A stretch of 64,000 nt of DNA, from positions 91,124 through 155,123 of the forward strand of contig RDOC01000001.1 in assembly GCA_011364985.1 (NCBI GenBank). The letters run 5' to 3'. Source of the stretch: Candidatus Thorarchaeota archaeon. GTDB taxonomy: Archaea; Asgardarchaeota; Thorarchaeia; Thorarchaeales; Thorarchaeaceae. The notes beneath the pieces are model-generated. The model was not told the origin of the DNA. It was given only the letters and a program-made list of their open reading frames with translations, and did not search any database. A program made the position numbers and the translations under genes. The first letter of the stretch is position 1; each line of letters starts with the position of its first letter. Positions 31,352 to 49,491 of the stretch are shown one piece after another.

Positions 31352-31927
31352 ATGGCGCTTGACTTCGCGAAAGGAATCACTGAGTTCCGATGGCACGGAC
31401 GCGGCGGACAAGGTGTTGTCACATCGAATCAGATGCTTGGCAAGGCCGCTCTGGCGGAAGGCAACTACATACAGGCCTTCCCTGAGTTCGGGCCAGAACG
31501 AACCGGAGCCCCAGTGCGGGCATTTTTGAGAATCAGCAAGAGCCCCATCCAGGTCTACGCGCAGGTATATAATCCTGACATTGTGGTCTGCATAGACCCA
31601 ACCCTTCTGGACGTGGTTGACCCCTCAGAGGGCTTGAAGCCAGATGGAACGCTCGTGCTTAACACTACATTGAGCTCGGAGGAGATTCGCAAGAAGTTCA
31701 ACTTCAAGGGTGGCAAGGTGGTTAGTGTTGATGCCACCAAGATTGCGCTAGACATCCTCGGAAGGCCCTTTTACAATATGCCAACAATGGCAGCAGCTGT
31801 GAAAGCCTCCGGTGTTGTCAATATCGAGACCGTCATCAACGAAGTTGTAGAACGATACCCGGGCAAGATTGGCGACCTAAACAAGGCTGCGATGAAACGA
31901 GCTGTAGAGGAGGCAAGAATAGGATGA
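31352..31927 (+). CDS. 2-oxoacid:ferredoxin oxidoreductase gamma subunit (four-subunit POR/VOR type)
   Basis: 191 aa with FRWHGRGGQGVVTSNQMLGKAALAEG, typical of the gamma subunit. Confidence 0.8.
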   Translation: MALDFAKGITEFRWHGRGGQGVVTSNQMLGKAALAEGNYIQAFPEFGPERTGAPVRAFLRISKSPIQVYAQVYNPDIVVCIDPTLLDVVDPSEGLKPDGTLVLNTTLSSEEIRKKFNFKGGKVVSVDATKIALDILGRPFYNMPTMAAAVKASGVVNIETVINEVVERYPGKIGDLNKAAMKRAVEEARIG

Positions 31928-32220
31928 GCGAGAAATTCAACGAGATTCCGATGGCAGGTAATATTATTGAACCCGGTAATGCTGTGAAATACAGAACTGG
32001 AGGATGGCGAGCCCAAAGACCAGTCCATGACCCGACAAATTGCCTCTGGATAAAGAATGGTACCTGCGGAAGATGCTGGATATTCTGTCCTGATATGGCG
32101 ATTCGTCTTATCGAGAAGGATGGAAAGTACAGCTATGAATACAATCTGGATGCATGCAAGGGCTGTGGAATTTGCTCCAATGAGTGCCCTACAGATAGCA
32201 TCAAAATGAAGAGTGAGTAG
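31924..32220 (+). CDS. 2-oxoacid:ferredoxin oxidoreductase delta subunit (2x[4Fe-4S] ferredoxin)
   Basis: 98 aa with CGRCWIFCPDMAI and CKGCGICSNECPTDSI. Overlaps the gamma subunit stop (ATGA). Confidence 0.8.
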   Translation: MSEKFNEIPMAGNIIEPGNAVKYRTGGWRAQRPVHDPTNCLWIKNGTCGRCWIFCPDMAIRLIEKDGKYSYEYNLDACKGCGICSNECPTDSIKMKSE

Positions 32221-32229
32221 ATAGCTGCA

Positions 32230-32319
32230 GTGGAAAGAGCATCCCAAGAAAAGATTACGATTGAAAGACCCACCGGCGAAGCAGCAATTGCACATGCGCT
32301 GAAGCAGTGCGAGCATTAA
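32230..32319 (+). pseudogene. 29-codon stub of a 2-oxoacid:ferredoxin oxidoreductase alpha subunit 5' end
   Basis: GTG lies 10 nt after the delta subunit stop and reads MERASQEKITIERPTGEAAIAHALKQCEH-stop. It aligns codon for codon with the alpha subunit 5' end at 47325-47393 and terminates where that similarity ends. Confidence 0.7.
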
Positions 32320-32958
32320 TGGCACTGGACTTTCTGAAAACAATAGATTATATTGTTCTAGAGGATATGTTGTATCTCGGGATAGAGTTTCTTATTCCAA
32401 ACAAGACTCTGAGTTTGCCTGAGCATCAGGTTCGTTTCTCTTATACAAATAACAATGTTCTCCTAGGCAAGCATCTATATGGACTCGTACTTCGAATCGA
32501 TGCTCATCTCGGATGGGTTCGCTCATTCTCTCGTACAGGATTTCTCCTTCCAACTGCTGACACATCGTATGTTATTGCACCAAGCTTGGTTGAAGAACTC
32601 GTAAAGAAGAAAATGGGAGATAGTAGGGCAAAAATCATTAAGATGAATAACCTACTTTTTGCTCGTCGAGGATGGGAGTTACCTTGGGAGATCCACCAGA
32701 TTGAGATTCTCACTTGCTTGGAGAGTTGAGGTAGAAACAGCAGCAGGAGATAGATTGGTTCTTAATGAATCCCTGAGAGTCGCTTATAATGGAGAACAGT
32801 TTAGTCCGGCTCCTTTGTATCTTCGTCTTGGCATCGTTGGAGAAAGTACTATGTTCTATCTAATCTTGGCGCCTTCATGGTGCATTGCCATTGCAGCCAT
32901 TGCCTTTCTTCTCATGAAACGACGACTCTCTAGAATCTTGGTATTGAAGAGAGGATGA
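32307..32958 (+). pseudogene. Two overlapping ORFs in different frames (32307..32729, 32659..32958); possibly one decayed gene ending in a C-terminal TM anchor
   Basis: No family recognised. The second ORF ends with a TM helix plus basic tail (LILAPSWCIAIAAIAFLLMKRRLSR). The frame change would fall within the 70-nt overlap. Confidence 0.2.
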
Positions 32959-33032
32959 AGTTGAGACATGCAATTAAGAATCCCAAATAGTAGCTTTGTA
33001 GATTCTACCTGACAATAAACCGTGTCTTGTTA

Positions 33033-33045
33033 CAGATACACTGAC
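33033..33045 (+). repeat. 13-nt CAGATACACTGAC, exact direct copy of 47430-47442
   Basis: Read directly from the sequence. It lies in an ORF-poor stretch and is followed by a hairpin at 33047-33063. Confidence 0.5.
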
Positions 33046-33046
33046 A

Positions 33047-33063
33047 TTGCCTTACGAAGGCAA
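33047..33063. other. Perfect 7-bp stem, 3-nt loop hairpin TTGCCTT-ACG-AAGGCAA
   Basis: Read directly from the sequence. It begins 2 nt after the end of the 13-nt repeat (one intervening base, A at 33046). Confidence 0.4.
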
Positions 33064-33282
33064 CAAAATCCCCTCGACCAAGATCAGCTTGGCCTAGGTT
33101 GGTCCATCAGCTTGGGTTATTATATCAACGTTGTTGAGCATCAAGGTCTTGACCTCATCATCGGCATGATGACGTCAGCTGTTCCCCAATGAATTTGCGA
33201 ATCGGTATGATTCCGCTGCTAGCTATCATTGTGCTGAATATCCCCTAATGCAATGGTTATATCGAGCACCAAGATTTCAGTC

Positions 33283-34227
33283 CTAACAATATGAGTAAGT
33301 GAACTGCATATGCCTGTATGTTTCCCTAAGACCTACCTTGTGATACAATCCAATCGCTGCGGAATTATCGATATCTACAAGCAATTCCACCCTTGTGTGA
33401 CCTTTAAGATACGCGCGATTCATGACCTCCTGTAGAAGGCATAATCCATATCCTTTTCTTCGATGCTCAGCGAGTACTCCTAGGGCATTTATCTGCAGTA
33501 TTTTGCCATCCCTTTCATCAGTGCCACCAGAAACTGTCCAACCTACGCACAGCCCCACTGGAATGTTTCTGACTTCTCCCAATACAACGAGGTTAGGATC
33601 AAAGCCCACGAGCTTACTGCGTGATTCTAGGGACTGTGATGTGACTGGAGCATAGTACATTGTATTCTTGAATAGCTTATTCTGAAGGGTTGCCCATGTT
33701 TCCAGTTCTTTCTGGGGATGTAAAGCTCTCACTTTGAAGCCCCATGGATATAGCGCTGGTCTTACTGGTTCGGTGAAATCAAGTCTCATTTTGACGCGAG
33801 AATTAATGTGATGAAAACCAAGACTTGCAGCGAAAGCGATGGCATAAGGTCGGAAGCTCAGAGCCCGAAGGGATAACTCATTGACATGTTGATTCATTGC
33901 TCTTAAACGAAGCCGAAGGAATAGGCTTGTACCTATCCCCCTTCTACGATATTTCGGATGTACGTGAATGACAAGTTGTGCTCTTTTCAGTTCCTCGGAC
34001 ACGAATATTGTGCCAGCAGCAACAAGGAAACCTGCACTATCTCGTACTAGAACAACATCCTTGGACAGGTCGGTTCCAGATGACTGGAATGCAGAACGGA
34101 AATAACGTGCCGTATAGTCAGAATGATTCTTATTATCATAGCCCTCGCTAAGGTTGTACAACATGGCATAGTCGCTGAGCATCTCTTCGTCCCCAGGCCC
34201 ATAGAAGAATAGTTCTTCTTCAACCAT
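33283..34227 (-). CDS. Tandem GNAT (double acetyltransferase domain) protein
   Basis: 314 aa with two acetyl-CoA-binding motifs: HVHPKYRRRGIGTSLFLRL and GVLAEHRRKGYGLCLLQEV. Confidence 0.7.
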   Translation of the reverse strand: MVEEELFFYGPGDEEMLSDYAMLYNLSEGYDNKNHSDYTARYFRSAFQSSGTDLSKDVVLVRDSAGFLVAAGTIFVSEELKRAQLVIHVHPKYRRRGIGTSLFLRLRLRAMNQHVNELSLRALSFRPYAIAFAASLGFHHINSRVKMRLDFTEPVRPALYPWGFKVRALHPQKELETWATLQNKLFKNTMYYAPVTSQSLESRSKLVGFDPNLVVLGEVRNIPVGLCVGWTVSGGTDERDGKILQINALGVLAEHRRKGYGLCLLQEVMNRAYLKGHTRVELLVDIDNSAAIGLYHKVGLRETYRHMQFTYSYC

Positions 34228-34924
34228 GAGCCTGTTCCACCGTTCTTAATGGCTGGGCAGCGAGTTCAGCAACATGTCCCCAGAAACGTCTTTTTCTCAA
34301 ATGTTTGTAATGGAGGATTGCAGAACCCAAGTCAGTTATTTTCACATATTTCCTTCTGGAATGGCGTATTCTAGCTATGTAACCCGCTTTCTCCAAGTCA
34401 CTTAGGTGCCTGGAAACACCCGACCTTTGTATTCCGGTTTCCTTGGTTATATCCTTTTGATATGTCGGCACCGGCTGTTTTGCAAGAAAATCTAATATAT
34501 CCCGCTTTCTTCGGTGTAGATTCATCAACTCTGAGGGCCATATCTCAGTGATTTCAAATACATCGTCTGCCGTTGGGCAGAGTATTGTGGCATTTGTAAT
34601 CGCGGCCGCAACACATGCTGCAATTGCAAGGAGTCCCTTGCTCAATGCCACATTGAACTCAATTTGATATTCGTCAATCCTGTGGTGGTCCAAAGATCTT
34701 AGAACTGCTGTAAGAATGCTGTAAAAGTTGTATGGATCTACAGATACACTAGTGACAGGAAATCCTAATGCTGTGTATCTCTCCAGAATTCCAGCAGCAA
34801 GTTCTTGTTTATCCATGGGGTATATAATCACAAGCTCTGCAACTGATCTTCGCATCAAAACGCGCTCGATAGGTGCTCCCCCCTCCTCATCAAGTATTGC
34901 TACGTGGATTGTTGGTTGTGTCAT
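34220..34924 (-). CDS. Regulator with Rossmann-like (CARF/Csa3-like, tentative) N-terminal domain and C-terminal winged helix
   Basis: 234 aa. The N-terminal half alternates beta and alpha elements (IHVAIL, LVIIYP, IEFNVALSKGLLAIAACVAAAI, ATILCP), as in Csa3-type sensor domains. The C-terminal part is an ArsR-like wHTH (ILDFLAKQPVPTYQKDITKETGIQRSGVSRHLSDLEKAGYIARI). It overlaps the GNAT gene by 8 nt. Confidence 0.45.
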   Translation of the reverse strand: MTQPTIHVAILDEEGGAPIERVLMRRSVAELVIIYPMDKQELAAGILERYTALGFPVTSVSVDPYNFYSILTAVLRSLDHHRIDEYQIEFNVALSKGLLAIAACVAAAITNATILCPTADDVFEITEIWPSELMNLHRRKRDILDFLAKQPVPTYQKDITKETGIQRSGVSRHLSDLEKAGYIARIRHSRRKYVKITDLGSAILHYKHLRKRRFWGHVAELAAQPLRTVEQAHG

Positions 34925-35277
34925 TTGACATCCGACCTCGTGGTTTTTTCACGCTCAAGAGACCCCTATTGAAGCACAAGTCCGTGTTTCAGGGCTGTTC
35001 TTGATTCCTTCGTGGTATGGATTGTCGTTTTCAAGGCGAGGGACTAGACACTCTCCACCTACCTGTTTCTCGTATTGCATCTCAATATTCCAAGTTTGTC
35101 CCTGTTCCTATCTAAAACAATACAAGATTTGGGTATATAAGCAAACGATTCCTTCTCAATATGGCGTTCTAATGCAGAAATCGAAGGTTTAGCGTGCAGT
35201 CCCCATTTTGGCCAGTAGCATTCATCAACGATTTTGAATTTTTCAAAGATAATTGATACCGGATGCTCCTTGCAAGT

Positions 35278-37176
35278 CTAACCGCGTCTCTTGACCACCG
35301 GTACGGTTGCAAGAGCAGACTTGGCCGTTTTACGCGTTGGCGCTTCACATTCCTCTTCCAGCGAGTCAATCCATATGTCTATCTCTCTGTCTGGAGATAA
35401 CCATCTTTGCCTTTCCTCACTCCAGAGATGTTCGGGGAATCGCCATTGGCCCCATATACCACTTCCGAGGGGAGAGGCAACTACATTCCAACCGAGTTTC
35501 CTAATTGTGTCCATCATCTTGGTTGACCCGCCAATGGGAAGGTCGATGAGCATTGTGAGATCTCGTCTCTTACCATATTGCAGAACAACGTGCGGAATCT
35601 CTCTTGACCATGCGTCAAGCATGCTACTGATTCTGCTGTCTGTGGCACGGAGAGCCACTCTTTCAACCAAGCCAATATTGTGTGCATCCCAGACGCTCCG
35701 AATCAGTCCAGCAGACCGCAACCGCTTCATACGACGCGAAAGCTGGTTTTGTCCAATGCCTAGTCGCTTTCTTAGTGCTCTCGTTGAAGAAACATTTTCG
35801 TGAATATAGCTTAAGATCATTATGTCAGTGTTGTCAATGTATTCATTTGTTGTTAGTGAAGGTGTATCAATCTGCTCTATCACCTTGTCTAGTGATTCTC
35901 TCTCTATCCTTTGTCCCCATCCCAGCATTGCCACCCATGGAATAGCCCATTGGTGGTTTGCCACATCATAATGGTAGAACGAGAATGAATGACCCGCTGA
36001 ATGCGTTTCCCCTATGTCCACTGTTACGTCAATGTCATTGAGCCGCTTTGCCATAAGCTTGAGCGATTTGATATTGTCATAATTGTCAGGAACAGCCAAT
36101 CTAGCCATTACTTGCCATGGTCCGTTAAGGATATGTCTAATGCTGTACAAGAAAGGGCACTTATTCAAGAAACGAGAAGGGTCAAGTGAAGGTATACCAG
36201 AGAGCAAGACGTGAAAAGATCGAATTCCGATTCTTGAAAATGGCGTCGTTGTAAGGCCAATCAAAACACATTTCCGTTTGAGCCTATTGATTTGAGTGGA
36301 AATCCACGAACTGCTAAGCCCGGTCAATGATGCCAACACGTCATTTGATGCTTCCTGATTTCTCAGCAAGATATCTAGAATCTTCACCTCTGCATGCCCC
36401 AGTGACACTTGAATGTCTTGGCTTCTTCGAGCCATATACTCGATATATTCCTCAAAGTCTAGCACATGGCCATACCGTGCCATAGCCACAAGCTCATGAA
36501 TGAGAAGTCCAAAATGGCGTCTTCCCCCTAGTGCGCTTATCCATTTCATCAGCTTGAATGAGTTATACTCAAGGTTTGAGCGCATCCTTCTTGAAGGAAT
36601 TGCCTTCCATAACTCAATCCAACGACTCTGTTCATTCTTGTTCAGATACTGGCGGGCGTATTCTGTACCAAAATCCCTTTGAGCTTCAGTACAAAGATCA
36701 TTAGGTAGGGCTGCAATGAAACTCTCTCTGAAAACAACTCCCTTAAGTGATAGTCTACCACTTGCGACTTTTTCTGAGATCTTGAGTTCGCGAATTTTGG
36801 CATTGAAGTGTCCCCCAATTCGCAGAACTCCACTTTCAGGAGAAATTGCTATGTCAGTGGGACCCAAGGGCACCTCAAGTCCATAACACTCTTGGATCAC
36901 CTTTGCAGAAGCAGACCAATAGTCTGCAATATTGGATTCTAGTGAAATCATCACCATCTTCGGTTTACTTGAGGCCTTAAGAGCTTGTGGTGTTTTAAGT
37001 GTGTTTGGAAAAACGCCAATTGCTGAGGTGTTTTCCGTAGAGTTGTCGTATGGAACGCAACTTATCATCTGGACGTACATTTCGACCGTCATAGTTTGAA
37101 TTGAAATCCTGCGCAGAATAGCCGATGAAAATGTACGGACCACCAGAGAATCCCATAGAACCGTGGTAATGGTCAA
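35278..37176 (-). CDS. Large regulator with at least two Lrp/AsnC-type wHTH modules
   Basis: 632 aa with VKILDILLRNQEASNDVLASLTGLSSSWISTQINRLKRKCVL and IMILSYIHENVSSTRALRKRLGIGQNQLSRRMKRLRSAGLI, each followed by a ~100-aa domain. The N-terminal ~250 aa are unassigned. Confidence 0.5.
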   Translation of the reverse strand: MTITTVLWDSLVVRTFSSAILRRISIQTMTVEMYVQMISCVPYDNSTENTSAIGVFPNTLKTPQALKASSKPKMVMISLESNIADYWSASAKVIQECYGLEVPLGPTDIAISPESGVLRIGGHFNAKIRELKISEKVASGRLSLKGVVFRESFIAALPNDLCTEAQRDFGTEYARQYLNKNEQSRWIELWKAIPSRRMRSNLEYNSFKLMKWISALGGRRHFGLLIHELVAMARYGHVLDFEEYIEYMARRSQDIQVSLGHAEVKILDILLRNQEASNDVLASLTGLSSSWISTQINRLKRKCVLIGLTTTPFSRIGIRSFHVLLSGIPSLDPSRFLNKCPFLYSIRHILNGPWQVMARLAVPDNYDNIKSLKLMAKRLNDIDVTVDIGETHSAGHSFSFYHYDVANHQWAIPWVAMLGWGQRIERESLDKVIEQIDTPSLTTNEYIDNTDIMILSYIHENVSSTRALRKRLGIGQNQLSRRMKRLRSAGLIRSVWDAHNIGLVERVALRATDSRISSMLDAWSREIPHVVLQYGKRRDLTMLIDLPIGGSTKMMDTIRKLGWNVVASPLGSGIWGQWRFPEHLWSEERQRWLSPDREIDIWIDSLEEECEAPTRKTAKSALATVPVVKRRG

Positions 37177-37298
37177 ATTAGACTGAGCATTATAGTAAAC
37201 ACTACTGAGTCAGCGGTTTAGATGGTCAATCGCCTGAACATAGGCATCTCCATCGAGCGCCAGCTTACGATTACTGAGTTGCAGAGGTATCTTGGATT

Positions 37299-38675
37299 AT
37301 GACGATGATAGTTGTCCCCTTATTATCGGCGGCTATCCAGCTAACAGGGGTAATACTCGGTGCCCAGTTTGTCAAGGATGACAATCCAAACCCTTTTGGA
37401 GTCTTCCTCTCGGCTTCTTGTATTGCGCTACTTGTTAGGAGCCTTTCTCTTCTGGTGACGCAGAGCTTTAATGAATTCAGCGGGGTAATGGACTATCCTT
37501 TTGAAGTACTACTGCTTCTTGTTTCAGGAGTTCTTGTAGGAATGACTTATGCCTTGACTGAGTCTTTGCCAGAAACAGGCAAGATCTTACCTTCAATTTC
37601 AATACATCCGGAATTGCACCTGCTCAGAGCAACTCTTGAGTCAACAGCCGAAGGCATTCTTGTGGTTGATGATGCAGGCACACATCTTCTCAGCAACACG
37701 CGATTTGCCGAGATGTGCAGAATTCCAAGGTCTCTGACGACCAAGGGAGTAGATGTCAATTCTCTTGACTATGTAACAGATCAGTTGGAGGACTCACTAA
37801 GATTCCAATCATACTTCAATGAACTCAGACATAGTATGAAAGCGGATATCTTTGATCTCAAGTTTCTTGATGGACGGCTGTTCGAGTGCTACACTGTTCC
37901 GATAGTTCAGGGCGATCGAAGCTTCAGTAGAATCTGGAGCTTCCGAGATGTGACAATACTTAGACGCGCCGAGGACAAAGCAATGCTCTATCTGGACCTA
38001 ATGAGTCACGATATCAGAAACCGCCTTCAAGGTATTGCCATGAGTCTGGAGATACTAAACCTCTTTGTACAAGATAGCAGCTCAATTGAAACGATCAATG
38101 ATATTGAAAACAATGTTCAGAGATGCGCCAGCCTTATTTCTAAGGTCAAAGCAACCGAAAAAATAGACAAAGCACCTCTTGCTGGAAGATCTTTGTCAAC
38201 CGCTATTGAACAATCACTGAAGGCGATCCAGTCGAGTTTTGATGGGGTCGAAGTAGACTACTCATCAAACGTTGAGAATGCGATTGTACAATCAGATAGC
38301 TTCCTCGAAACACTTCTAGCCAATGTACTTGAGAATGCGGTCATTCATAATCACAGCAATAAGAAGTGTATCTGGGTGAATCTCAGGAAACTGGATCAGG
38401 GATACGAGGTTACAATAGCAGATAATGGTCCAGGAATTCATGACGAACTCAAGGCTGACTTATTCCACAAAGACAGAAGATACGGCGGAGTGGGACTTCA
38501 TCTGGTTTCGCATGTAACGGAGAAGTATGGTGGTAGCTTGCAGATTTCAGACCGTATTCCCGGGTGCCCCGAACAAGGCTTAGAGTTTCGATTGTGGATT
38601 CCTAGTCTTGAGGAAGAACGAAGCTGTTTTGACTATGCTTGCAAGACAGATATAGGGTCATCTAGCAGAATGTAA
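37299..38675 (+). CDS. Membrane-bound PAS sensor histidine kinase
   Basis: 458 aa with N-terminal TM helices, a PAS region (LESTAEGILVVDDAGTHLLSN), an H-box (LMSHDIRNRLQGI) and an ATPase domain (NAVIHN, DNGPGI, GGVGLHLV). Confidence 0.8.
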   Translation: MTMIVVPLLSAAIQLTGVILGAQFVKDDNPNPFGVFLSASCIALLVRSLSLLVTQSFNEFSGVMDYPFEVLLLLVSGVLVGMTYALTESLPETGKILPSISIHPELHLLRATLESTAEGILVVDDAGTHLLSNTRFAEMCRIPRSLTTKGVDVNSLDYVTDQLEDSLRFQSYFNELRHSMKADIFDLKFLDGRLFECYTVPIVQGDRSFSRIWSFRDVTILRRAEDKAMLYLDLMSHDIRNRLQGIAMSLEILNLFVQDSSSIETINDIENNVQRCASLISKVKATEKIDKAPLAGRSLSTAIEQSLKAIQSSFDGVEVDYSSNVENAIVQSDSFLETLLANVLENAVIHNHSNKKCIWVNLRKLDQGYEVTIADNGPGIHDELKADLFHKDRRYGGVGLHLVSHVTEKYGGSLQISDRIPGCPEQGLEFRLWIPSLEEERSCFDYACKTDIGSSSRM

Positions 38676-38679
38676 ACGC

Positions 38680-39729
38680 CTAATCCACAATGGGTAAGAG
38701 AATCTCAAAAGATGCGCCCCTTCGGATATCCGAATCGATGAGCTCAATGCTGCCGCCCATTGTCTCTAATACACGTCTTGACAGGTACAGCCCAAGTCCG
38801 CCTCCTCGGGTGGAAACTCCCTTCTGGAATAATGCTCCTCTAATCTCCTTTGCCACTCCAGGTCCATCATCAGCCACCACAACTCTAAGAGTATCATCTT
38901 GTTTTGAAATCGAAATAGTAACGGTTGGATGGTTTCCTGCATAGACTTCGGCATTCCGCAGGAGGTTATCAAAAACAAGTGGAAGAAGCTGGCTAGCGGG
39001 AATACGAACACCCTTGACGCTTTCATCGACCATAACTTCAACTTTCATGCCCATGCTGGCTATCTTGATCTGGTTTGCGATTCTTCCTATCATAGCAATG
39101 GGATCGGTATCGGCCATTTTGGCAGCTGCTCCAAATGCATTCAGGAGATTCAGCATTCGTTCACAAACGGCTTCGGTTGAGGCAAGAATCTCATCCAACA
39201 CATCATCTCTATCTGATATGGTCATCTTGGCAATCTCAACATTCCCCAAGATTACCCCGAGATCGTTCCGAAAATCGTGTCTCAGCAGGGATGCATAGAG
39301 CTCAAGTTCATGATGTAGTTGATCCTTGGTCCTCTCAACCTGTTTCAGTTCCATGTAACGACCAAGCTCTGCCGCCACCGTATCGATGAAGTTCCTTTCG
39401 TGAAGTAGAAAAGGGCCTTCTTCCGCACAGGGTTTCTCTTCAAGGTAATAGACTTCCACCGCACCAATAGGAGTGTCCCCTATTGCTATTTCAGCTCTTT
39501 GCAGCCAATCAGTCGTTCTGAAATTCGCCGAAGAAATCTTTTTGTTATCCCAAATCACTCTGGCACAGGTATCGTTAGGGTATTGCCAAGCCTCGGGAAG
39601 CAAGTGCACTAGAGTATTTATGACTTCAGAGGTTTCCTTCTGTGATTCTTTGAAGAGCTTGGAGATCACATTAAGACACAGTATTTGGTGTGCTATTGCT
39701 TCAATTGATTGAACATTTTTCTCCGGCAA
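38680..39729 (-). CDS. Cytoplasmic sensor histidine kinase
   Basis: 349 aa with an H-box (LLRHDFRNDLGVILG), N-box (LLRNAEVYA), DDGPGV and GGGLGLYL. The N-terminal sensor domain is unassigned. Confidence 0.8.
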   Translation of the reverse strand: MPEKNVQSIEAIAHQILCLNVISKLFKESQKETSEVINTLVHLLPEAWQYPNDTCARVIWDNKKISSANFRTTDWLQRAEIAIGDTPIGAVEVYYLEEKPCAEEGPFLLHERNFIDTVAAELGRYMELKQVERTKDQLHHELELYASLLRHDFRNDLGVILGNVEIAKMTISDRDDVLDEILASTEAVCERMLNLLNAFGAAAKMADTDPIAMIGRIANQIKIASMGMKVEVMVDESVKGVRIPASQLLPLVFDNLLRNAEVYAGNHPTVTISISKQDDTLRVVVADDGPGVAKEIRGALFQKGVSTRGGGLGLYLSRRVLETMGGSIELIDSDIRRGASFEILLPIVD

Positions 39730-40108
39730 GTGAATGCTAACCTCATGTGACTAATAGGATCTATTGGTAGACAGACAGCGAGAATAGGTCCAATATGTAT
39801 CTAAGAATGTTTCGTCAAACGTATTTTCAGGATTATAAGTTGCTACTAGCTCTAAGTGAATATGAAATCGAATCGTTCGATCCCCCCCCTCCGTAATGGG
39901 ATATCTTGAACAGAAACTTCTGCAATACGAGATTAATCGGTAAACTGAAAGAAGAGGATTTGAGCTTACATAAAAGGAGGAGGGAGTAGATAGGGAGTAT
40001 GCTAAAAAGGGAATTTCAGATGAATATAATGATGATTTGCAACGAAGTTGCTCAGAATCCCTCATGATGTTGTGATGCATAATCAGAGGAATTGGAGGTA
40101 ATGAAGGA

Positions 40109-41212: not shown

Positions 41213-41571
41213 TGGTAAGTATACTCATTGTCGATGATGACAAATTCCTGCACAAAGTGTTGGAGAAAATCCTAATCATTGGCGGCCATCAGGTTGTCGA
41301 CCACGCATACGACGGAGCAGAGGCACTGGAGAAGTTTGTGAAACTCAATCCAAAGCCTGATATTATTCTGATGGACCATCGAATGCCTGTCATGAATGGC
41401 GCCACTGCCACAAGAGAAATCACCCGCTTGAATCTAGATAGTCTAATCATTTTCATCAGTGCTGATGACACTGTGAAGGAAGAAGCGATGCAGTCCGGCG
41501 CCCGTGATTTCCTTACAAAGCCCATTCGCAGCTCAGAGCTTTTCTCAGTAATTGACAAACATTCGGCATAA
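41209..41571 (+). CDS. Single-domain response regulator receiver (CheY-like)
   Basis: MVSILIVDDD, phospho-acceptor context IILMDHRMPVMNG, FISADD and LTKP. The likely start is ATG 41212 (TGATG overlap with the kinase stop). Confidence 0.85.
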   Translation: MMVSILIVDDDKFLHKVLEKILIIGGHQVVDHAYDGAEALEKFVKLNPKPDIILMDHRMPVMNGATATREITRLNLDSLIIFISADDTVKEEAMQSGARDFLTKPIRSSELFSVIDKHSA

Positions 41572-41946
41572 CAACTTCATGAGATGCTCGATATGTGAAG
41601 CATTCGTATCTGGAATAGAGGCTCGCTTTCTGAGCATCTGACAACTCCAAGGATGCCAAAGATCCTTAAGAGAGCAGATCCTCCGGCCAATCTGTCAGGA
41701 TACGAGTTTCTACCATGCACTCACATACTTGTGTGCAGAGTTGAGAATCACTGAACACTGGCCGTAGCTGTTTCTGTCATGACTATTTTCATCGGTAAAG
41801 TAAAGGTCAGAGCCCGCCTTGTCAGAAGAAATCTCGTGAGACCGACACTTTGCTACAAAGCAAGGTTGAAGAGTGAGTTTCAAGGATGCTTGCCAATCCT
41901 CAACGAATGCCAAAGCTGAGATTCCATTTGCAGTGACTACTCCAAA

Positions 41947-43236
41947 TTACACAACCAAGTCCTCGAAGCTCGAACTCCACACTTCAAGGCAAGAAGTCAT
42001 TGCCTCTTTCGAGATCCTTTCGGCAGTCGCAGAACCCAATTTCTGTGAAACTTGATTCGCCAAATCCTTCTGAATAGACTCAAGAGCATCAGATAGCTGG
42101 AGCAAATTTCTGATTTCGAGAGCCTCTTCAAGCCGACAAGTGATTTTGAAACCTCTGCTGCATTCTATTCTAGTGGCCCATGGAATTTGAGCCACAGTTC
42201 TTTCAATTGCCAGATTGAAGTAGTTTCTTATTGATTTCGCATCCAAAAGGTTTGAGGCCCTTTTGAGCATCATTGTGAGGATACATTCATTGACAAGAAC
42301 TAGCTTTCGTTCAAGCGTGACTCTTTGAATGTATCCTCCATTCGTCAACAGACCAAGTTCAATCATCAGCGTTTCGCTAGAGTCCAATTTCAGCTTACGC
42401 AGAATATGAATCAGTTTTGTCCTATTATTTAGTGATCCAATGACCTTCAGCGTATCTAGTCGAAGTTTCTTTGGATTTTGCATGTCTAGTAAGAAACTGC
42501 CTGACTCCTCTGATAGCATGAGAATATCATCGTCAGGCGGAACAAAAACAACATGAATGAATCTATTCCACAGTGCCCTTGATATCAGTTCTGTAATCTC
42601 TTCAAACGATACCTCTAGAAGCTGCATTGCTGATGAAAGCGTCATCCGGTCCTCAATTTGAGTGAGTAGCTTCTTAATATTGTATGACCATCGAGGCGAT
42701 TCACAGTGAACAAAGTTCTCTCTCCAATCATAACCTTTCAGAATTATGGCTCTGTTGGATAGTCTGTCTGCAACAAACAATCTCCTTACGAACTGGTCGA
42801 AATCGCGAAATGCACTTCCTTCAAATCCATCAGCTTCCCTGAGTATCGCAAAGCTATCTTCAAATTCTCTCACTATCCTACGAAGTTTGCTTCTTGCCTC
42901 GCTTGTTTCTTTCTTTACAACAAGAACGCCCATTGCCCATTCGCCCTCTTCAACAATGAGGGTTGTATCGGAGCCATACTCTGTCTTCCAGTGAGTACGT
43001 CTAGTTCCAGTTATTTCTTGCATGAAAGATGTAAGTGCTGAAATCAAACCTGATAGCACCTGTGTATCTTGTGATACAGCAACGAATTCATGAGAATATG
43101 GCGCGACACCCGAAAATGCATTCAGAATGAACAAGAATTGCTCATTTGATAGTGTGGAGTAATCCTTTGTCGCAAAGGACTCCCTATCCGATCTAAGAAA
43201 TGAAACCAAATCACTTCCTGACGGAAATCGACTCAT
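41947..43236 (-). CDS. Hypothetical regulator-like protein; N-terminal region roadblock/longin-like (tentative), central wHTH-like segments
   Basis: 429 aa. VSQDTQVLSGLISALTSFMQEITG...TTLIVEEGEWAMGVLVVKKETSEARSKLRRIVREFEDSF resembles roadblock/LC7-type alpha-beta sandwiches. It lies 37 nt downstream of the Asn-variant receiver gene on the same strand. Confidence 0.4.
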   Translation of the reverse strand: MSRFPSGSDLVSFLRSDRESFATKDYSTLSNEQFLFILNAFSGVAPYSHEFVAVSQDTQVLSGLISALTSFMQEITGTRRTHWKTEYGSDTTLIVEEGEWAMGVLVVKKETSEARSKLRRIVREFEDSFAILREADGFEGSAFRDFDQFVRRLFVADRLSNRAIILKGYDWRENFVHCESPRWSYNIKKLLTQIEDRMTLSSAMQLLEVSFEEITELISRALWNRFIHVVFVPPDDDILMLSEESGSFLLDMQNPKKLRLDTLKVIGSLNNRTKLIHILRKLKLDSSETLMIELGLLTNGGYIQRVTLERKLVLVNECILTMMLKRASNLLDAKSIRNYFNLAIERTVAQIPWATRIECSRGFKITCRLEEALEIRNLLQLSDALESIQKDLANQVSQKLGSATAERISKEAMTSCLEVWSSSFEDLVV

Positions 43237-43273
43237 AGTATTGCATCCTTCTCTTCAGGTTTGCGTTATCGTG

Positions 43274-43636
43274 TTATTTAGTATATCTGCCAATTTCCTC
43301 AAAATGATTCTTGCTTTGAGTTGGCTTTGTCATGAAGCCCAGCGCGCCGAACTTCATTGCTCTCTGTTTCACCGAATCGTCGGCGCTGATGAACACTACG
43401 ACTGTATCGGGATTCATTTCCTTGCACTCCTGTGTTGCCGCGACACCATTCATCACAGGCATCCGGTGATTCATCAGCACGATATCCGGTTTAGGATTCA
43501 GTGTGACATACCTTTGGAGAGCTTCTGCCCCATTGAATGCATGTTCAGTTACAGCATGACCGCCCAAGCCCTGGAGACGTTCAAGGATTTCGTGAAGAAA
43601 TACATCATCGTCCACAATCATAATCGACACCATCAT
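43274..43636 (-). CDS. Receiver-domain protein with Asn replacing the phospho-acceptor Asp (pseudo-receiver)
   Basis: MMVSIMIVDDD, DIVLMNHRMPVMNG (AAT codon at 43469-43471 where the paralog at 41209 has Asp), FISADD and MTKP. It is otherwise about 60% identical by eye to the 41209 receiver. The track ORF extends to 43678. Confidence 0.8.
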   Translation of the reverse strand: MMVSIMIVDDDVFLHEILERLQGLGGHAVTEHAFNGAEALQRYVTLNPKPDIVLMNHRMPVMNGVAATQECKEMNPDTVVVFISADDSVKQRAMKFGALGFMTKPTQSKNHFEEIGRYTK

Positions 43637-44651
43637 TAGGCATTCTCCTACGATTTCTTCGACCGTTTTGACATTCAATAAAGGTGCGACTGCTCACTTC
43701 GAGCTACTACTTTATATCTGCTCCCCAATGATTTCCATTGTTTTTCTGCATATTTGATGAAGTTGCAGAGGTTTCTTGGAGCTAGCAACTGCGACTACAT
43801 CATCTCATCTATTTTTCGGTGGTTGGTACCTCTTCCTATAATATGCGTTTTCGTCTTCTTTCCCAACCAAAGGCCTTGTAAGACTGGCTAAAGCTTCGCT
43901 TTTCTGTGTTCTGGTCACTTTTGTTTGACTTGCCTACTTCTCCCACCTCACATGAATCATGCGTTATTATTGCTATATCAGAAGGGGTTGCATAAGTCTC
44001 GATCAAGGAACTCAGAATCATCATTGGGATTAATGCTTTCAATCGCATGGTTGATCCCCTCAAATGATTGTGGTATAGGCATGTCCAGTCCAATAGATTC
44101 ACATAAGTTCAGATTTGAGTCAGTTTGTTCTCTGTTGTTGAAGCTTTTGGAACTCTACTCTTTGTCACATTATGAATCTTGCTTGCAGGAATTCTACTTC
44201 ATGTTGTGCCATTCTTCAGCAGATGCGGTATAGAATAGTCATAAGGCACTGAGAGTCAGAATTGGTTCTGATAGAGAAAGGATTTGAGAATGGATATATG
44301 CCTCCATAGATTGGGTTCGTTATTGTTGGATGGACATATTCTACTAGAAACTGCTGTTTTTCAATTGATCTTCTGTGTCATTTTCTGCTAACAGAGTTGA
44401 CTGGATTAGGCACCACTAGGATAGAGAATCCAGTGCATCTTCTTTTCCATATGCTTCGAGAGATATCATTTGCATTACACTTTGGATTCTGACGAAATGA
44501 AGATGCAATACTCTCGACATCTAAACAGTCAGAAGATTGACCTGCTTTAGAGACAAAACAACAAAGCATTTGCAAATTGGCTAGTAGCGTTTCAGCATAA
44601 GATCATATTGCGAAAGACTGAGGGTGATTTGCAAGTCAATGCTATGAATAC

Positions 44652-46148
44652 CTAACCATATCGAGCAGAATCAATTGGCACAGCAGGAATCTCTATGATA
44701 AACCTCGCCCCCTGACTGTAATCTCCTGGCACTCTGTTTTCCACAACGATTTTCCCCCCATAATGACTAATGATGCGGTTTAGTAAGGTAAGACCAACTC
44801 CAGTTCCAAGGTGGCCAGAACTTAAGAGCGATACTCTTCCAAATAGTAGTCCTTTTGTTTGATCAGGGATTCCCGTCCCATGATCTGCAATGTCAATTCT
44901 AATCCTTGATTTATCTTCACTCATGACCATACTGATATCTACATCAACTGAAGGTTCTGGATCGAATCTCATTGCATTATGAAGGACTGCATAGAAAGCA
45001 TCTGTCAAGTACTCATCGGCCATTACTTCAAGCAACTCTGGTTCAATCTTGGTCTTCAGATTGAGTTCCTTGTAAGGCAAGTCTTTCTGGACTCTGTCCG
45101 TGGCTTTTGTTAATGCAGCAAGAGGGTTAGTGGGCGTAAGTTCGGGGGGTGAGTCCTCTATCTTTTTGAATTTTTGAACATTCTTGATTAGCCGGTTGCT
45201 TCGAATCATTTGATATAATCCCTCTTGAATCAGTTCTTTTGTCCTATTTGTAAGGCCTGTATCCAACAGAAGAATATCGAAGATCCCATATACAGCCTGA
45301 TTGATATTAGATAAATCGTGACTCATCAAATCCAAAAAGAACTCGGCCCGATTCCGAGACTCTTCTATCTTCTTCTCTGATTCTATTCTGTCAGTATTAT
45401 CTACCTGAACAATCTGGATTGCATCTTCTCCATCATACTGAATGACAGCGAAATGTGAATTAATCCATCTACAAGTCCCATCTCTGCGAATTATCCTAAA
45501 TTGCTGATGTGTTGATGTCTCAGATCCTTCAAGAAATCTCGAATATGCCTCTCTCAATATAACGACATCCTCAGTATGGATGAAGTTCGACATATGCTTT
45601 ACCTCAAGATTCAGAATCTCATCAATAGTGCACCCCATCATATCAGCGTATGCCTGATTTGAGTAGACAATTCTGTCATCTTGGAGAATCGCGATACCAT
45701 GAACAGAAGACTCAGCTAAAGCTTTGTAATTTTCCTCACTTCGTTTAAGGTTATTCTCAGCTTGTTTTCGTTCAGTAATATCAGATATGACCGTTTGTAT
45801 AACCTTTTCTTTACCTATATCAACAAAATTAGACGAAACATCAGCAATGAATGTTTCGCCGTTCTTCCTTCTTAACGTTGCCTCAATTCTGGTCCAACCT
45901 TGCACGTTGATTGCCTCTACAATCTGTTGAATGGTTTCTTTGTCAGCAATTTTGGTGAGTTTTATGGAGAGCAGCTCATCTCTTGTGTAACCAAAAAGGT
46001 CCACAGCGCTCTGATTTGCATCAAGTGTATTTCCATTCAGGCTTCGGATCAGAATTGCATCTCTGGTTGAATGAAAGAGCTGGCTGTATTTCTCCTCACT
46101 CATTCGAAGCTCCTCTACAGCTTCCTTCTGTGGTGTTATATCCTGCAT
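44652..46148 (-). CDS. Multi-PAS sensor histidine kinase
   Basis: 498 aa with three PAS-like segments separated by DITERK/EELR-type linkers, an H-box (LMSHDLSNINQAV), LHNAMRF, DHGTGI and GTGVGLTLL. Paralog of the 40109 kinase. Confidence 0.8.
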   Translation of the reverse strand: MQDITPQKEAVEELRMSEEKYSQLFHSTRDAILIRSLNGNTLDANQSAVDLFGYTRDELLSIKLTKIADKETIQQIVEAINVQGWTRIEATLRRKNGETFIADVSSNFVDIGKEKVIQTVISDITERKQAENNLKRSEENYKALAESSVHGIAILQDDRIVYSNQAYADMMGCTIDEILNLEVKHMSNFIHTEDVVILREAYSRFLEGSETSTHQQFRIIRRDGTCRWINSHFAVIQYDGEDAIQIVQVDNTDRIESEKKIEESRNRAEFFLDLMSHDLSNINQAVYGIFDILLLDTGLTNRTKELIQEGLYQMIRSNRLIKNVQKFKKIEDSPPELTPTNPLAALTKATDRVQKDLPYKELNLKTKIEPELLEVMADEYLTDAFYAVLHNAMRFDPEPSVDVDISMVMSEDKSRIRIDIADHGTGIPDQTKGLLFGRVSLLSSGHLGTGVGLTLLNRIISHYGGKIVVENRVPGDYSQGARFIIEIPAVPIDSARYG

Positions 46149-46548
46149 TTGTACAATATAGCCTTGTACTCATGACATAGTCTACTGTTGCGTTGCCGTT
46201 TATCGCGGAGGTGTAGTTTATTGTGCCCAGAGTGGTTACGCCGAATCTTGTGGTCTTCAGGGTTTGATCATTTAGTTCTGAAGGTTCGAAAATGAGGTCT
46301 GGATTCAGTACGAAATAGCCAGATGGATTCTGGCGAATCCTAACGTATTGGATAATATCATTTGGATTGTAATAGATATTATCACATTCATACTCATCGA
46401 GAGCGCACTCATATTCTGACTGTATAGCTTGGGCTTCAAGCTCATGAATGAATGTGAACACCTGCATTGCTCCTCCTAGTAACAAGAAGACCAGCGCTAT
46501 GCCCAGAACATAGTTGGCCGCATACCTTCCAGGCACTCCATTCGTCAC
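46096..46548 (-). CDS. Hypothetical membrane-anchored protein
   Basis: 150 aa with one N-terminal TM helix (YVLGIALVFLLLGGAMQVF), then a probably extracytoplasmic domain. Its 3' end overlaps the kinase start by 53 nt in another frame. Confidence 0.35.
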   Translation of the reverse strand: MTNGVPGRYAANYVLGIALVFLLLGGAMQVFTFIHELEAQAIQSEYECALDEYECDNIYYNPNDIIQYVRIRQNPSGYFVLNPDLIFEPSELNDQTLKTTRFGVTTLGTINYTSAINGNATVDYVMSTRLYCTNAGYNTTEGSCRGASNE

Positions 46549-47309
46549 AATACAACCAGTCCCCTTCTCTTAATTCCTGACAAGATAAATTAAGTTTATC
46601 TTGCATTTCTATCCATTCTCGAAATCATAGAACTGCGCACCTCTCACCTGTGCCATATACGTCCTTCCTCACATGTCCGATATGATGTAATGACCCTCCT
46701 ATGCCATCATCACTCAGCAAGAGCTTTGCAGGATTCCGTTCAATGAAGAACAGATCACCAATTCGAACGTTCCTCAGGTCGATCTTTGAGGCAGTAATGA
46801 CGGGGCAGACTACCACTTTTCTATCTCGTCTATGTTGGTGAAGATCTATATCAGATTCTCCTTTGGAGATTTCTGATTATGCTAATTGACGGGTATAGAC
46901 TAGATCTATGAATTGACACACTCCGTGAGGGTGTATGGAATCTTAGCACCACTTCCTGATTCTGTTCGTGATCCGGCTTCTCCATTATATGGCTCATAGT
47001 GTGGTCTACTCATCTACGTTCTGGATCTGTGCGTGTATTCATGACAAATTCCAATGCTGTAATGTTCCTAGAATTACTTGCTATCTCTGTAGGTTTCGGT
47101 CTTACTGCATACTATCCCTTGCCGAGCCGAAAAGAAGAATGAACAGTATACATTGGATAGCATTACATAGCCACGGGCATGAGTGCGTTCTCCAGGATAG
47201 GAGATCATGACAGATGTGATTCGTTTTCGGAAGTTCTTCTTCATATGAGTTTTGTCAATAGGTAAGATACTTAAAAGACGGAAGTTTGTGGAACACTTGG
47301 AGATGGCAA

Positions 47310-48541
47310 TTGACGCCAACGATAAGTGAAAATGCAATTTCTATTGAAGGTCTAACTGGCGACGCCGCCATAGCACATGCCCTGAAGCAATGCGACCTGG
47401 ATGTCCTTGCAGCGTATCCTATTACGCCTCAGATACACTGACCCTCGTGGTCCTTGTAGAGGTAACTATAATCGTAGAAGACTTCCAGAAGTTTGCAGCA
47501 GATGGAGAAGTTCACACAGCAGTTATTCCAGTTGAGTCTGAACACAGTGCAATGAGTGCTTGTGTGGGAGCATCAGCCATTGGAGCCAGAGTTGCTACGG
47601 CCTCAGCATCAGCAGGACTCGCCCTGATGTGGGAAATTCTGTACTGCGCGGCTTCAATGCGAATGCCAATCGTCTTCACTGTGGCAAACCGAGCACTTTC
47701 AGCCCCTATCAACATCCACAATGACCATAGTGATGGAATGGGTATGCGTGATAGCGGCTTTGTGCAGTTGTACTGTCAGTCCTCGCAGGAGGCCTATGAC
47801 ACCACTATTATGGCCTTTAAGTTGGCTGAGGACCACGACGTCCTGCTCCCAGTAATGGTGGGCATTGATGGATTCATTCTCAGTCACAACGTTGAGAGAG
47901 TAGAGATGCTTCCAACAGAGATGGTCCACAAGTTCCTTGGAGTACGCGATCCTGTCCAACCCCTAGACCCGAAGAATCCGATAACCATGGGTCCACTGGC
48001 TCTAACTGACTATTACTTCGAGTTCAAAGAGCAGCAAGACAGGGCAATGTGGCGAGTCCCTGAGGCCTACAAGAAGGTTGAAGAGGAGTTCAAGAAGATC
48101 ACTGGGCGATCCTATGGAATGTTTGAAGATTACAAGACCAAGGATGCTGACATTATCATCCTCGCAATGAGCACCATGGGAGGAACTGCAAAGGCTGTAG
48201 CCGATGTGCTTCGTGAGAAGGGCGAGAAGGTCGGAGTCATTCGACTGAAGATGTTCAGGCCATTCCCATCAGAAGAGATTGCCGAGGCGGTTGGTGATGC
48301 CAAGGCAGTTATGATCTTCGAGAAGGCTATGTCTTTCGGTGCGGTCACAAGCCCTCTTGCCATGGAAGTGAGAAGCGCCCTCTATAATGTTGACAAGCGA
48401 CCAATGGTCGTTGACTTTGTAGTCGGGCTCGGTGGAAGGGATGTGCCCCCGACAACCTTTGTTGAAGGATACGAGAAGACGAAGAGGTATTTGGAGAAAG
48501 GACAAGCTCCACTGTACGAAACCTTGGGGGTGCGAAAATAA
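47310..48541 (+). pseudogene. 2-oxoacid:ferredoxin oxidoreductase alpha subunit, reading frame broken by a 32-nt insertion at 47433-47464
   Basis: From TTG 47310 (GGAGA at 47299-47303) it reads MTPTISENAISIEGLTGDAAIAHALKQCDLDVLAAYPITPQ, then IH and TGA (47439-47441). The body continues in the frame of track ORF 47390..48541 from ACT 47465: TIIVEDFQKFAADGEVHTAVIPVESEHSAMSACVGASAIGARVATASASAGLALM...NRALSAPINIHNDHSD, a canonical alpha subunit. Confidence 0.75.
47430..47442 (+). repeat. 13-nt CAGATACACTGAC, exact direct copy of 33033-33045
   Basis: Read directly from the sequence. It spans the Gln codon of PITPQ and the first 10 nt of the 32-nt insertion. Confidence 0.5.
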
Positions 48542-49491
48542 TGGAAGAAGCAGCTGTATCAATCAAGGACATGCTACAAAAAGACCAAATCCTCTCTTCT
48601 GGCCATAGGATGTGCGCCGGTTGCGCCGCTCCTACAATTGTGAAATTGATGGGCATGGCACTAAGAGGCCCTACAATAGTCTGTGAAGCCACAGGCTGCC
48701 TTGAGGTTGCAACCACAATCTATCCCTTTACTGCGTGGAAGATACCTTGGATACACGTGGCCTTCGAGAACGCCGCAGCGGTGGCCTCTGGTGTCATTGA
48801 GGCTCAGAAGATAATGAGAGAGAAGGACCGTTCTGAGTACGAGCATGTCGACGTTATTGCTATTGGTGGTGATGGTGGAACCTTTGACATTGGATTTGGA
48901 GCAATAAGCGGCATGCTGGAGAGAGGACACGACGTCGTATACATGGTATACGATAATGGTGCCTATCAGAATACTGGAATCCAACGGTCTGGCGCTACAC
49001 TACCCGGACAAGAGACCACAACATCTTGGGCAGGTAAGGTGGAACCTGGCAAGCGACAACGGAAGAAACCCTTGGCTGAGATTGTTGCCGCACACAAGAC
49101 TCCATACGTTGCCACGGTTGACCCATACCACTACAGGGACTTCATCATGAAGTTCAGAAAGGCTTTGGAGGTTGATGGACCAGCGTTCATCCATGCGTTT
49201 TCCCCATGTCCAAGAGGCTGGCGGTCAGATACGTCAAGAAGTATCGAGCTGGCAAAGATGGCTGTTGAGGTTGGAATTCACCCGCTCTACGAAGTCATCG
49301 ACGGAGAAGAATGGATAATGTCAGGACCAAGTAAACGCATCAAAGAGCTCACTCCACTGGAGGAATTCTGGGCACTTCAAGGGCAGTTTCGACACCTGAA
49401 AGACCCCAAGTGGAGTGATTTCAAGAAGGATCTCCAGGACCAAGTCAACCATGATTGGGAACTTCTGAAGAAACGTTGCGGTATCGAATGA
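48541..49491 (+). CDS. 2-oxoacid:ferredoxin oxidoreductase beta subunit (TPP-binding)
   Basis: 316 aa with GHRMCAGCAAP, GCLEV and IGGDGGTFDIGFGAISGMLERGHDVVYMVYDNGAYQNTG. Its ATG overlaps the alpha subunit stop (TAATG). Confidence 0.85.
   Translation: MEEAAVSIKDMLQKDQILSSGHRMCAGCAAPTIVKLMGMALRGPTIVCEATGCLEVATTIYPFTAWKIPWIHVAFENAAAVASGVIEAQKIMREKDRSEYEHVDVIAIGGDGGTFDIGFGAISGMLERGHDVVYMVYDNGAYQNTGIQRSGATLPGQETTTSWAGKVEPGKRQRKKPLAEIVAAHKTPYVATVDPYHYRDFIMKFRKALEVDGPAFIHAFSPCPRGWRSDTSRSIELAKMAVEVGIHPLYEVIDGEEWIMSGPSKRIKELTPLEEFWALQGQFRHLKDPKWSDFKKDLQDQVNHDWELLKKRCGIE

Follow-up and report, generated by a model that had tools for sequence, protein, structure and literature searches.

Probable splitting of a thorarchaeal porGDAB operon by a recombined porA cassette, with a putative bulge-helix-bulge intron in the functional gene

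A 64,000-nucleotide stretch of contig RDOC01000001.1 from a Candidatus Thorarchaeota archaeon (assembly GCA_011364985.1; called the window below, with positions counted from its first letter) holds the genes of a porGDAB-type 2-oxoacid:ferredoxin oxidoreductase, putatively a pyruvate:ferredoxin oxidoreductase, in two pieces about 15 kb apart, porG and porD being followed by a short porA fragment on one side of the gap, and porA and porB lying together on the other. The second porA is itself interrupted by a stop codon. This raises the question as to how the gene came to be divided and how a complete alpha subunit could still be made from it. Taken jointly, the comparisons make it probable that the operon was split by recombination of a foreign or allelic cassette into porA and that a bulge-helix-bulge (BHB) intron is spliced from the functional copy. 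The window's own por locus is labelled W, and L001 to L081 denote the other loci and contigs compared with it.

The domain sets of all four subunits are recognized by Pfam, which bears out the four-subunit gene set (porG, porD, porA, porB) described in the initial annotation of this DNA, and the alpha subunit is complete only without 32 nucleotides (nt). The rest of the alpha gene had been taken as a single open reading frame (ORF), which it is not: the frame opened by TTG 47310 reads ...LDVLAAYPITPQ and then meets an in-frame TGA at 47439-47441, and the POR_N frame picks up at 47465 with TIIVEDFQKF (the main porA ORF in the ORF list is 47390-48541). Full-length homologues read ...AAYPITPQTIIVED(F/Y)QKF without interruption. 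The extra bases are exactly the 32 nt from 47433 to 47464, between codons 41 and 42, and their removal gives PITPQ followed by TIIVEDF, the same as in intron-less homologues at the junction. Exon 1 (47310-47432, forward strand) thus delimited has a TTG start and 41 codons ending in ...AAYPITPQ; exon 2 (47465-48541, forward strand) has 358 codons and a stop, with Pfam POR_N (positions 20-230) and PFOR_II. The predicted joined exons read CCUCAG and then ACUAUAAUC in the RNA (in the DNA, CCTCAG to ACTATAATC), with the junction peptide AAYPITPQTIIVEDFQK. The spliced gene would encode 399 amino acids (aa), 88-91% identical to Thorarchaeota PorA proteins (397-401 aa) over 99% of its length; the unspliced reading gives a peptide of 43 residues only.

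The fold of the insert points to how it might be removed. A BHB motif is made of two 3-nt bulges flanking a 4-nt helix (PMC7714728) and is cut between bulge residues 2 and 3 (PMC2738675). In W, the motif spans about 47419-47474 and comprises a central helix of 4 base pairs (bp), CCUC 47427-30 with GAGG 47459-62, the 3-nt bulges AGA 47431-33 and UAA 47463-65, and an intronic helix h' in which UACA 47434-37 pairs with UGUA 47455-58 and GACC with GGUC (4+4 bp). The rule places the cuts between 47432 and 47433 and between 47464 and 47465, which are the borders demanded by protein homology. The insert (47433-47464, forward strand) is read here as a BHB-type pre-mRNA intron whose exonic helix is weak in W and whose excision is predicted, and most likely it would be spliced from the RNA by EndA and an RNA ligase. 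EndA would cut between residues 2 and 3 of each bulge, and the ligase (RtcB) would join the exons, restoring the frame and the uninterrupted sequence PITPQ-TIIVEDF.

No tRNA gene was found in the window, and Rfam gave no match around the intron. Apart from porA, no candidate in a relaxed scan of the window for BHB motifs is backed by homology as a further mRNA intron; one at 46068-46098 was rejected, as it would delete a conserved PAS N-cap motif. BLAST found no copy of the intron elsewhere in the compared DNA, short matches to its 3' half landing on the exon-2 sequence ATHGTNGAGGAC of intron-less porA genes. That 3' half (W 47447-47464) resembles the adjacent exon 2 (47465-47482), and the same is seen in L077 (8006-8023 and 8024-8041); the resembling stretches are ...ATTGCGGAGGAC in the introns of relatives, ...CTTGTAGAGGTA in that of W and ATAATCGTNGAGGAC, codons IIVED, in exon 2. 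This hints that the intron may have been born of a small local duplication, the possible source of the GAGG strand that pairs with CCUC.

Homologous inserts are present in other Thorarchaeota. Seventy-two loci were fetched from species-representative genomes, and the inserts of L062 and L075-L077 were compared with that of W. An insert of 31 nt interrupts the same codon boundary in L062 (Thorarchaeota CSMAG_1051); inserts of 31 nt are likewise found in L075 (an ENA scaffold) and L076 (a Logan contig from another run), reached via the truncated protein P0113, and in L077 (a JGI contig), the sole new locus from a metagenome pattern scan that demanded CCTCAR and GAGG and that introns with other Pro or Gln codons therefore escape. 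The insert is thus carried by five independent assemblies, as 32 nt in W and 31 nt in the other four, and in four distinct sequences. The central helix CCUC:GAGG is kept in all of these (16 of 16 helix cells paired), with bulges AAA/ACA in L062 and L077 and AGU/AUA in L075, and the cut rule ends exon 1 with a Gln codon and begins exon 2 with a Thr codon in all four. The minimum-energy folds of L062, L075 and L077 are the canonical hBHBh' (z-scores -3.8 to -5.0), with an exonic helix h of 2+6 bp and an intronic helix h' of 9 bp. Of all pair cells in the four sequences, 94.6% are paired, as against 27-50% with partners slid, and two pairs have changed on both sides, for example from A-U to G-C in the intronic helix. 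The genes that carry the insert are under strong purifying selection: between L062 and L077 the nonsynonymous (dN) and synonymous (dS) divergences of exon 2 are 0.036 and 1.03, and the ratio omega is 0.033 between L075 and L077 and 0.067 between W and L077, within an overall range of 0.03-0.07; for exon 2 of W, omega is 0.04-0.07. To persist in intact, strongly constrained genes across lineages, a frame-breaking insert has to be removed or bypassed.

On the other side of the gap, the resident porG (31352-31927, forward strand; gamma subunit, Pfam POR PF01558, E 7e-41) and porD (31924-32220, forward strand; delta subunit) are followed by a porA stub, the resident 5' end of the gene (32221-32319, forward strand, with its stop at 32317-32319). 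The initial annotation had begun this stub at GTG 32230, which corresponds instead to ancestral codon 4; porA homology begins at 32221, straight after the porD stop, where alignment to L004 and L060 shows the ancestral ATG changed to ATA. Its translation of 32230-32319 holds, and so do the match between the two alpha 5' ends and the abrupt end of similarity after AAGCARTGCGA: in a blastn comparison of the window with itself, the only significant internal repeat of either locus pairs 32254-32312 with 47337-47395 (59 nt, 78% identity, E 3e-7), and tblastn matches alpha residues 6-29 to 32242-32313. W exon 1 is the same as its homologues from IEGLTGD to PITPQ. Four replacements (G>R, L>P, D>E and D>E), at positions where functional homologues never vary, mark the stub as a decaying remnant. 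The view that the two ends diverged as coding sequence, and are no fresh duplication, is supported by dN 0.13 and dS 1.1 between stub and exon 1 in W, and, in L077, by 22 differences in 90 positions between the stub and the cassette exon 1 of the same locus (dN 0.045, dS saturated).

Directly 3' of the W stub, 32313-32345 reads TAATGGCACTGGACTTTCTGAAA (MALDFLK) and is like the start of porG, TAATGGCGCTTGACTTCGCGAAA (MALDFAK, from 31349). The differences lie mostly at third codon positions, the likeness is below BLAST significance and the L077 junction has no counterpart; it may be chance or the trace of a more complex rearrangement.

The stub and the functional gene are separated by a block of about 15 kb (32320-47263) that is missing beside contiguous operons. 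A contiguous G-D-A-B order is found in L001, L002 and about 60 other Thorarchaeota loci, with NosD-like neighbours upstream and GDPD and others downstream, and the flanks of the window at 20.8-31 kb and 53.2-64 kb are syntenic with theirs. This shared synteny identifies the block as an insertion, and the synteny check proposed in the initial annotation finds its empty site: among these roughly 60 loci, none has homologues of the block ORFs beside the operon. By Pfam, the block encodes a GNAT acetyltransferase, two helix-turn-helix regulators, four histidine kinases (HK), two CheY-like receivers of the response-regulator (RR) type and small ORFs that lack an assignment, and it also holds a 429-aa gene of a Thorarchaeota-specific family. 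One block protein is 100% identical to a hypothetical protein (locus tag EAX81_00620) of a Thorarchaeota metagenome-assembled genome. An HK-RR-429aa module sits in contigs L078 and L079, which carry no por genes. In GC content and tetranucleotide profile the block matches its flanks and shows no compositional break; this composition, together with the Thorarchaeota-type HK/RR cluster, indicates native-type DNA with no recognizable mobile element. Within the block, at 40109-43678, the paralogous CheY-like receiver genes 41209-41571 (forward strand) and 43274-43678 (reverse strand) face each other around the 429-aa gene (41947-43236, reverse strand). The modules of L078 and L079 keep the HK-RR-429aa order on one strand with a single RR, so that the block contains an inversion with a duplicated gene at its junction.

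The detached porA-porB unit is preceded by the TATA/BRE-like (B recognition element-like) 12-mer AAGATACTTAAA (47264-47275, forward strand), which occurs once in the window and overlaps the TTAAAAG box of the initial annotation. Among 76 loci scanned it recurs only in L040 and L062, and it is present again in L077, fetched later, each time 5' of a detached porA; AAGATACTTAWA is common to the detached porA genes, 34-60 nt 5' of the start. The 12-mer is plausibly the promoter of porA-porB, a function predicted from this association, and the separate transcription of alpha and beta suggested earlier is plausible by way of an element specific to detached porA genes. About 100 nt 3' of the stub, a hairpin followed by a T-rich tail (32417-32441, by consensus match) could be a candidate terminator of the porG-porD transcript.

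The same design is found on one contig in L077, which runs NosD, porG, porD, a stub equal to the whole of exon 1, 3.1 kb of other DNA, the promoter-like element, exon 1, intron, exon 2, porB and GDPD. The left break point is at codon 41 there and at codon 29 in W. In L062, L040 and L081, porA-porB has no porG-porD within 10 kb upstream and the upstream genes are unrelated; L040 and L081 lack the intron. In a neighbour-joining tree of PorA(71-399)+PorB, W, L062/L077 and L081 belong to three different clades, all of them nested within groups of relatives that are contiguous and lack the intron (L040/L081 are counted together as one split clade), and a gamma+delta tree agrees for W and L077. The sequences of these loci are mosaics. 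Between L062 and L077, identity is 93-100% from the promoter through exon 1 and the intron to ~70-130 nt into exon 2, and 80-88% beyond; L062 and L075 are about 100% identical further 3' in porA and 53-93% identical upstream. The G-D-stub part of L077 follows the contiguous intron-less L045 at ~97-98% identity as far as CCGCA at codon 41/42, where similarity collapses. The exon 1 of L075 is of the stub type except for its last ~15 nt, which are of the cassette type, and L075, contiguous and intron-bearing, looks as if a crossover close to the end of exon 1 had secondarily re-fused it. The proposal of a homology-anchored right joint and an illegitimate left joint fits both the identities of cassette and gene body between L062 and L077 and the identity of the L077 stub to L045. 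Two further observations concern the inserted DNA of L062. Upstream of its detached porA (1273-4377, reverse strand) lie genes for a 1034-aa membrane-anchored HerA-like ATPase (DUF87, marginal score), a nucleotidyltransferase and a subtilase; and 4482-4694 of L062 has its homologue in 4823-5035 of L077, immediately to the right of the stub there, which shows that the two inserts share both ends and differ inside.

Homology-facilitated illegitimate recombination has been described in Acinetobacter and Streptococcus pneumoniae, which are naturally transformable bacteria and not archaea, and the split is best described as working in a similar way. Homology would anchor the incoming DNA on one side only (porA exon 2) and the other joint would be illegitimate, with foreign DNA placed beside the anchor and a short conversion tract inside it; a switch inside the anchor of the donor-to-recipient kind is seen in the relatives, where L062 and L077 pass from 93-100% to 80-88% identity and L062 equals L075 at 100% downstream. 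The archaeal case differs from the bacterial one in being drawn from comparative sequence patterns. Taken as a whole, these patterns suggest that a unit of promoter, exon 1 and intron passes from one lineage to another. On this model, an ancestral porG-porD-porA-porB operon would have been broken by a DNA segment recombining into porA, the segment bringing native-like cargo and, at its right end, a detached porA 5' cassette, foreign or allelic, of promoter, exon 1 and mini-intron. The right joint would have arisen by homologous recombination inside porA and the left joint illegitimately, at the end of homology with the incoming intron-bearing allele in L077 or 13 codons before it in W. The resident porA start, stranded behind porD, would then lose its ATG and decay, porG-porD would remain transcribed from the old promoter, and porA-porB would be transcribed from that of the cassette. 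For W, we infer promoter activity and the direction and mechanism of DNA transfer from the comparison with relatives; the foreign origin of its cassette, in particular, is suggested by the tree and by the promoter element and intron that W has in common with other loci.

Several observations weigh against recombination of a cassette with a spliced intron. In W, the exonic helix h is weak (one G-C pair and then a C.U mismatch) and the full hBHBh' lies ~6 kcal/mol above the minimum-energy fold, so that the motif is only of a relaxed, HBh'-like kind; motifs of this relaxed class are reported substrates of (alpha-beta)2 EndA, and Asgard archaea including a Thorarchaeote are reported to possess a broad-specificity (alpha-beta)2 EndA with an L1 loop (PMC5829648). 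The relaxed BHB scan of the window returned 45 ORF-joining candidates, so that the motif by itself proves nothing. With only four intron sequences the covariation is weak, 79 of 500 shuffles reaching the observed value, and the splicing of porA is a deduction from sequence. W exon 1 is 77% identical to the other cassette copies and 72% identical to its clade-mates over 60 nt, a difference within noise. W has 70-83% nucleotide identity to every locus and no close relative was found, which puts the foreign origin of its cassette and its right crossover beyond direct demonstration; a search for mosaicism in W porA against ten relatives was uninformative, every locus being 70-83% identical throughout. 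The mosaics of L062 and L077 each come from one metagenome assembly and could be strain chimeras, and only that of L075 is reproduced (L076). As to the assembly of W, an independent Logan contig (L080) reproduces 33895-46196 at 100% identity, that is, the block interior only, and stops short of both junctions; look-ups of exact proteins (delta, beta, the 383-aa ORF) for other assemblies spanning the junctions returned no match. The organism of the window is present in SRR11241199. A chimeric assembly would be expected to join identical repeats, unlike the 78%-identical ones found here, and L077 has the same design.

The alternative that survives best, while still unlikely, is a vertical history in which one ancient split and intron gain in an early Thorarchaeote were followed by many reversions (re-fusion between the exon-1 repeats, loss of the intron), with nothing foreign in W. 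The promoter 12-mer and the intron (same site and fold, ~66% identity) are homologous across clades, as common descent would have it, L075 resembles a re-fusion product, and the cargo differs among split loci as if an old gap kept gathering DNA. Gain and loss are, moreover, known for the cbf5 intron in Crenarchaeota (PMC2738675). What speaks against such a history is the number of independent and precise reversions that it needs, with three split clades each nested among contiguous intron-less relatives. The L077 stub, furthermore, is near-identical to the intact gene of an intron-less neighbour species, and 7 of 7 differences between its core and the functional exon 1 of L075 are synonymous, unlike what a long-dead remnant would show; and lineages with gene bodies 12-20% apart have cassettes of 93-100% identity.

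A further possibility, which must be held tentatively and is on the whole doubtful, goes beyond recombination of an allelic or foreign cassette: promoter, exon 1 and BHB intron might form a mobile unit at the DNA level that spreads among Thorarchaeota lineages and invades intron-less porA genes precisely at the intron-insertion site in a homing-like manner, breaking the gene where homology gives way to heterology. Were this true, the four-gene operon would have been converted repeatedly into two transcription units, the gap then gathering cargo DNA; these would be the first horizontally spreading endonuclease-type introns in Asgard protein-coding genes, and they would offer a concrete route to a joint origin of introns and of gene or operon fission.

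That porA is a pseudogene, or its break a sequencing or assembly error, the 32 nt being disabling and the enzyme lost or supplied elsewhere, is improbable. In its favour, the sequence does contain the frameshift and the stop, no full-length protein comes from NCBI or other gene callers, and the 383-aa ORF is absent from records. A homologous insert at one codon boundary in five assemblies from different samples, 31 or 32 nt long and never a multiple of three, is nevertheless difficult to reconcile with error or decay, the more so as the downstream ORF is intact in all of them at the low omega values given above and as a conserved structure has predicted cuts that excise the insert to the nucleotide.

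Genomic islands can enter the 5' ends of genes and supply a replacement start, as with dusA-specific integrases, and the initial annotation had considered an integrative element as its alternative. An integrase-mediated, site-specific element that targets the porA 5' end and brings a replacement promoter and start would explain why a stub is left on one side, why the gene restored on the other has a 5' part that has diverged and a promoter of its own, and why the same site is struck in three clades; as in dusA-type islands, the native 5' fragment is stranded and the gene is restored by a promoter and 5' end borne by the incoming DNA. The idea is nonetheless very improbable. By Pfam, the larger ORFs of the W block and of the matching DNA of L062 and L077 hold no integrase or recombinase domain, the precomputed Pfam lists of L081 contain none, and there is none in the corresponding DNA of L040. 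No identical att core is present at the junctions, where the repeats show 78% identity throughout in W and 76% throughout in L077; the left breaks fall at different codons, and the cargo is unrelated between loci, native-like in composition and, in W, a typical Thorarchaeota HK/RR cluster. Break points and native-like cargo that vary in this way, with neither integrase nor att core, set the porA split apart from dusA-type islands.

Programmed ribosomal bypassing or frameshifting over the 32 nt is hardly credible: like T4 gene 60, porA has a stop codon close behind the point of take-off and a stable hairpin within the gap, but none of the four sequences has matching take-off and landing codons flanking the gap, the gap borders are BHB bulge positions, which bypassing does not require, and no Rfam element matches.

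For the preferred reading, in which a cassette recombined into porA and its BHB intron is spliced out, the closest precedent of the intron is that of cbf5 in Crenarchaeota (Watanabe et al. 2002; Yokobori et al. 2009, PMC2738675). Both are short introns in an ORF with BHB-like borders and a predicted cleavage between bulge residues 2 and 3, and both have a patchy distribution, which for cbf5 reflects gain and loss. porA differs in encoding a subunit of a central-metabolism enzyme and not an RNA-modification protein, and in belonging to the Asgard phylum Thorarchaeota; three of its four intron versions are canonical hBHBh', whereas the cbf5 motifs were termed unconventional or relaxed; and its intron, the splicing of which is here a prediction, adjoins a recombination junction and a detached promoter. 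BHB introns in ORFs are represented in the literature consulted by cbf5 and by one Haloferax mRNA as an endonuclease substrate. A literature search of incomplete coverage did not turn up BHB introns reported from protein-coding genes of Asgard archaea, which is absence of evidence only.

Rearrangements that break genes at BHB intron positions are also known from the split and permuted tRNA genes of Nanoarchaeum and Caldivirga (Chan et al. 2011, PMC3218864), and the resident gene of L077 is likewise broken exactly at the intron-insertion site. Unlike in split tRNA genes, no trans-splicing is needed or possible, as the cassette gives a complete exon 1 in cis and the W stub ends before the BHB half. 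Trans-splicing from the stub was accordingly rejected as a candidate: the W stub ends 13 codons before the splice site, and the L077 stub has CCGC in place of CCUC and so cannot form a central helix with the distal GAGG. The splicing of HAC1/XBP1 (by IRE1 and RtcB/Trl1) offers a more distant comparison, being a spliceosome-independent removal of a short, frame-shifting mRNA intron at structure-defined sites with tRNA-type ligation; the endonuclease there is IRE1, the sites are stem-loops and the process is regulatory, with no sign of regulation in porA.

BHB introns in protein-coding genes are very rare, with essentially one accepted precedent, cbf5 in Crenarchaeota; a conserved one in an Asgard archaeon, and in a gene of core energy metabolism, would widen the class and extend it into the lineage closest to eukaryotes. 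It would also explain why automated annotation renders porA as truncated or broken. The comparative data, for their part, show with unusual clarity how an operon comes apart, apparently through anchored recombination, takeover by a foreign promoter and 5' exon, and decay of the native start.

porG is 83-90% identical to the gamma subunits of contiguous operons; porD, with 2x[4Fe-4S] (Pfam Fer4_21 and other Fer4 families), is 70-90% identical to delta subunits in relatives; and porB (48541-49491, forward strand), the thiamine pyrophosphate-binding beta subunit (Pfam TPP_enzyme_C), is 75-89% identical to beta subunits in relatives. Downstream of porB, an ORF of 772 aa (50888-53206, reverse strand) appears, by eye from its translation, to fuse a NifS-like cysteine desulfurase to a selenophosphate synthetase (SelD)-like domain. 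It and the neighbouring membrane protein gene (49643-50806) are missing beside most related por loci, and the two may represent a second, smaller insertion 3' of porB. Upstream, the conserved gene 20839-22734 (forward strand) has a weak PorA-like match (21% identity, E 4e-4), and its product may be another protein of the 2-oxoacid oxidoreductase family, outside the split operon. Other disrupted por genes occur in Thorarchaeota metagenome-assembled genomes: in L043, the porD hit at 8430-8722 falls in two overlapping frames, by a frameshift or another small insert, and in L072, around 1450-1550, porA is short of ~200 internal codons.

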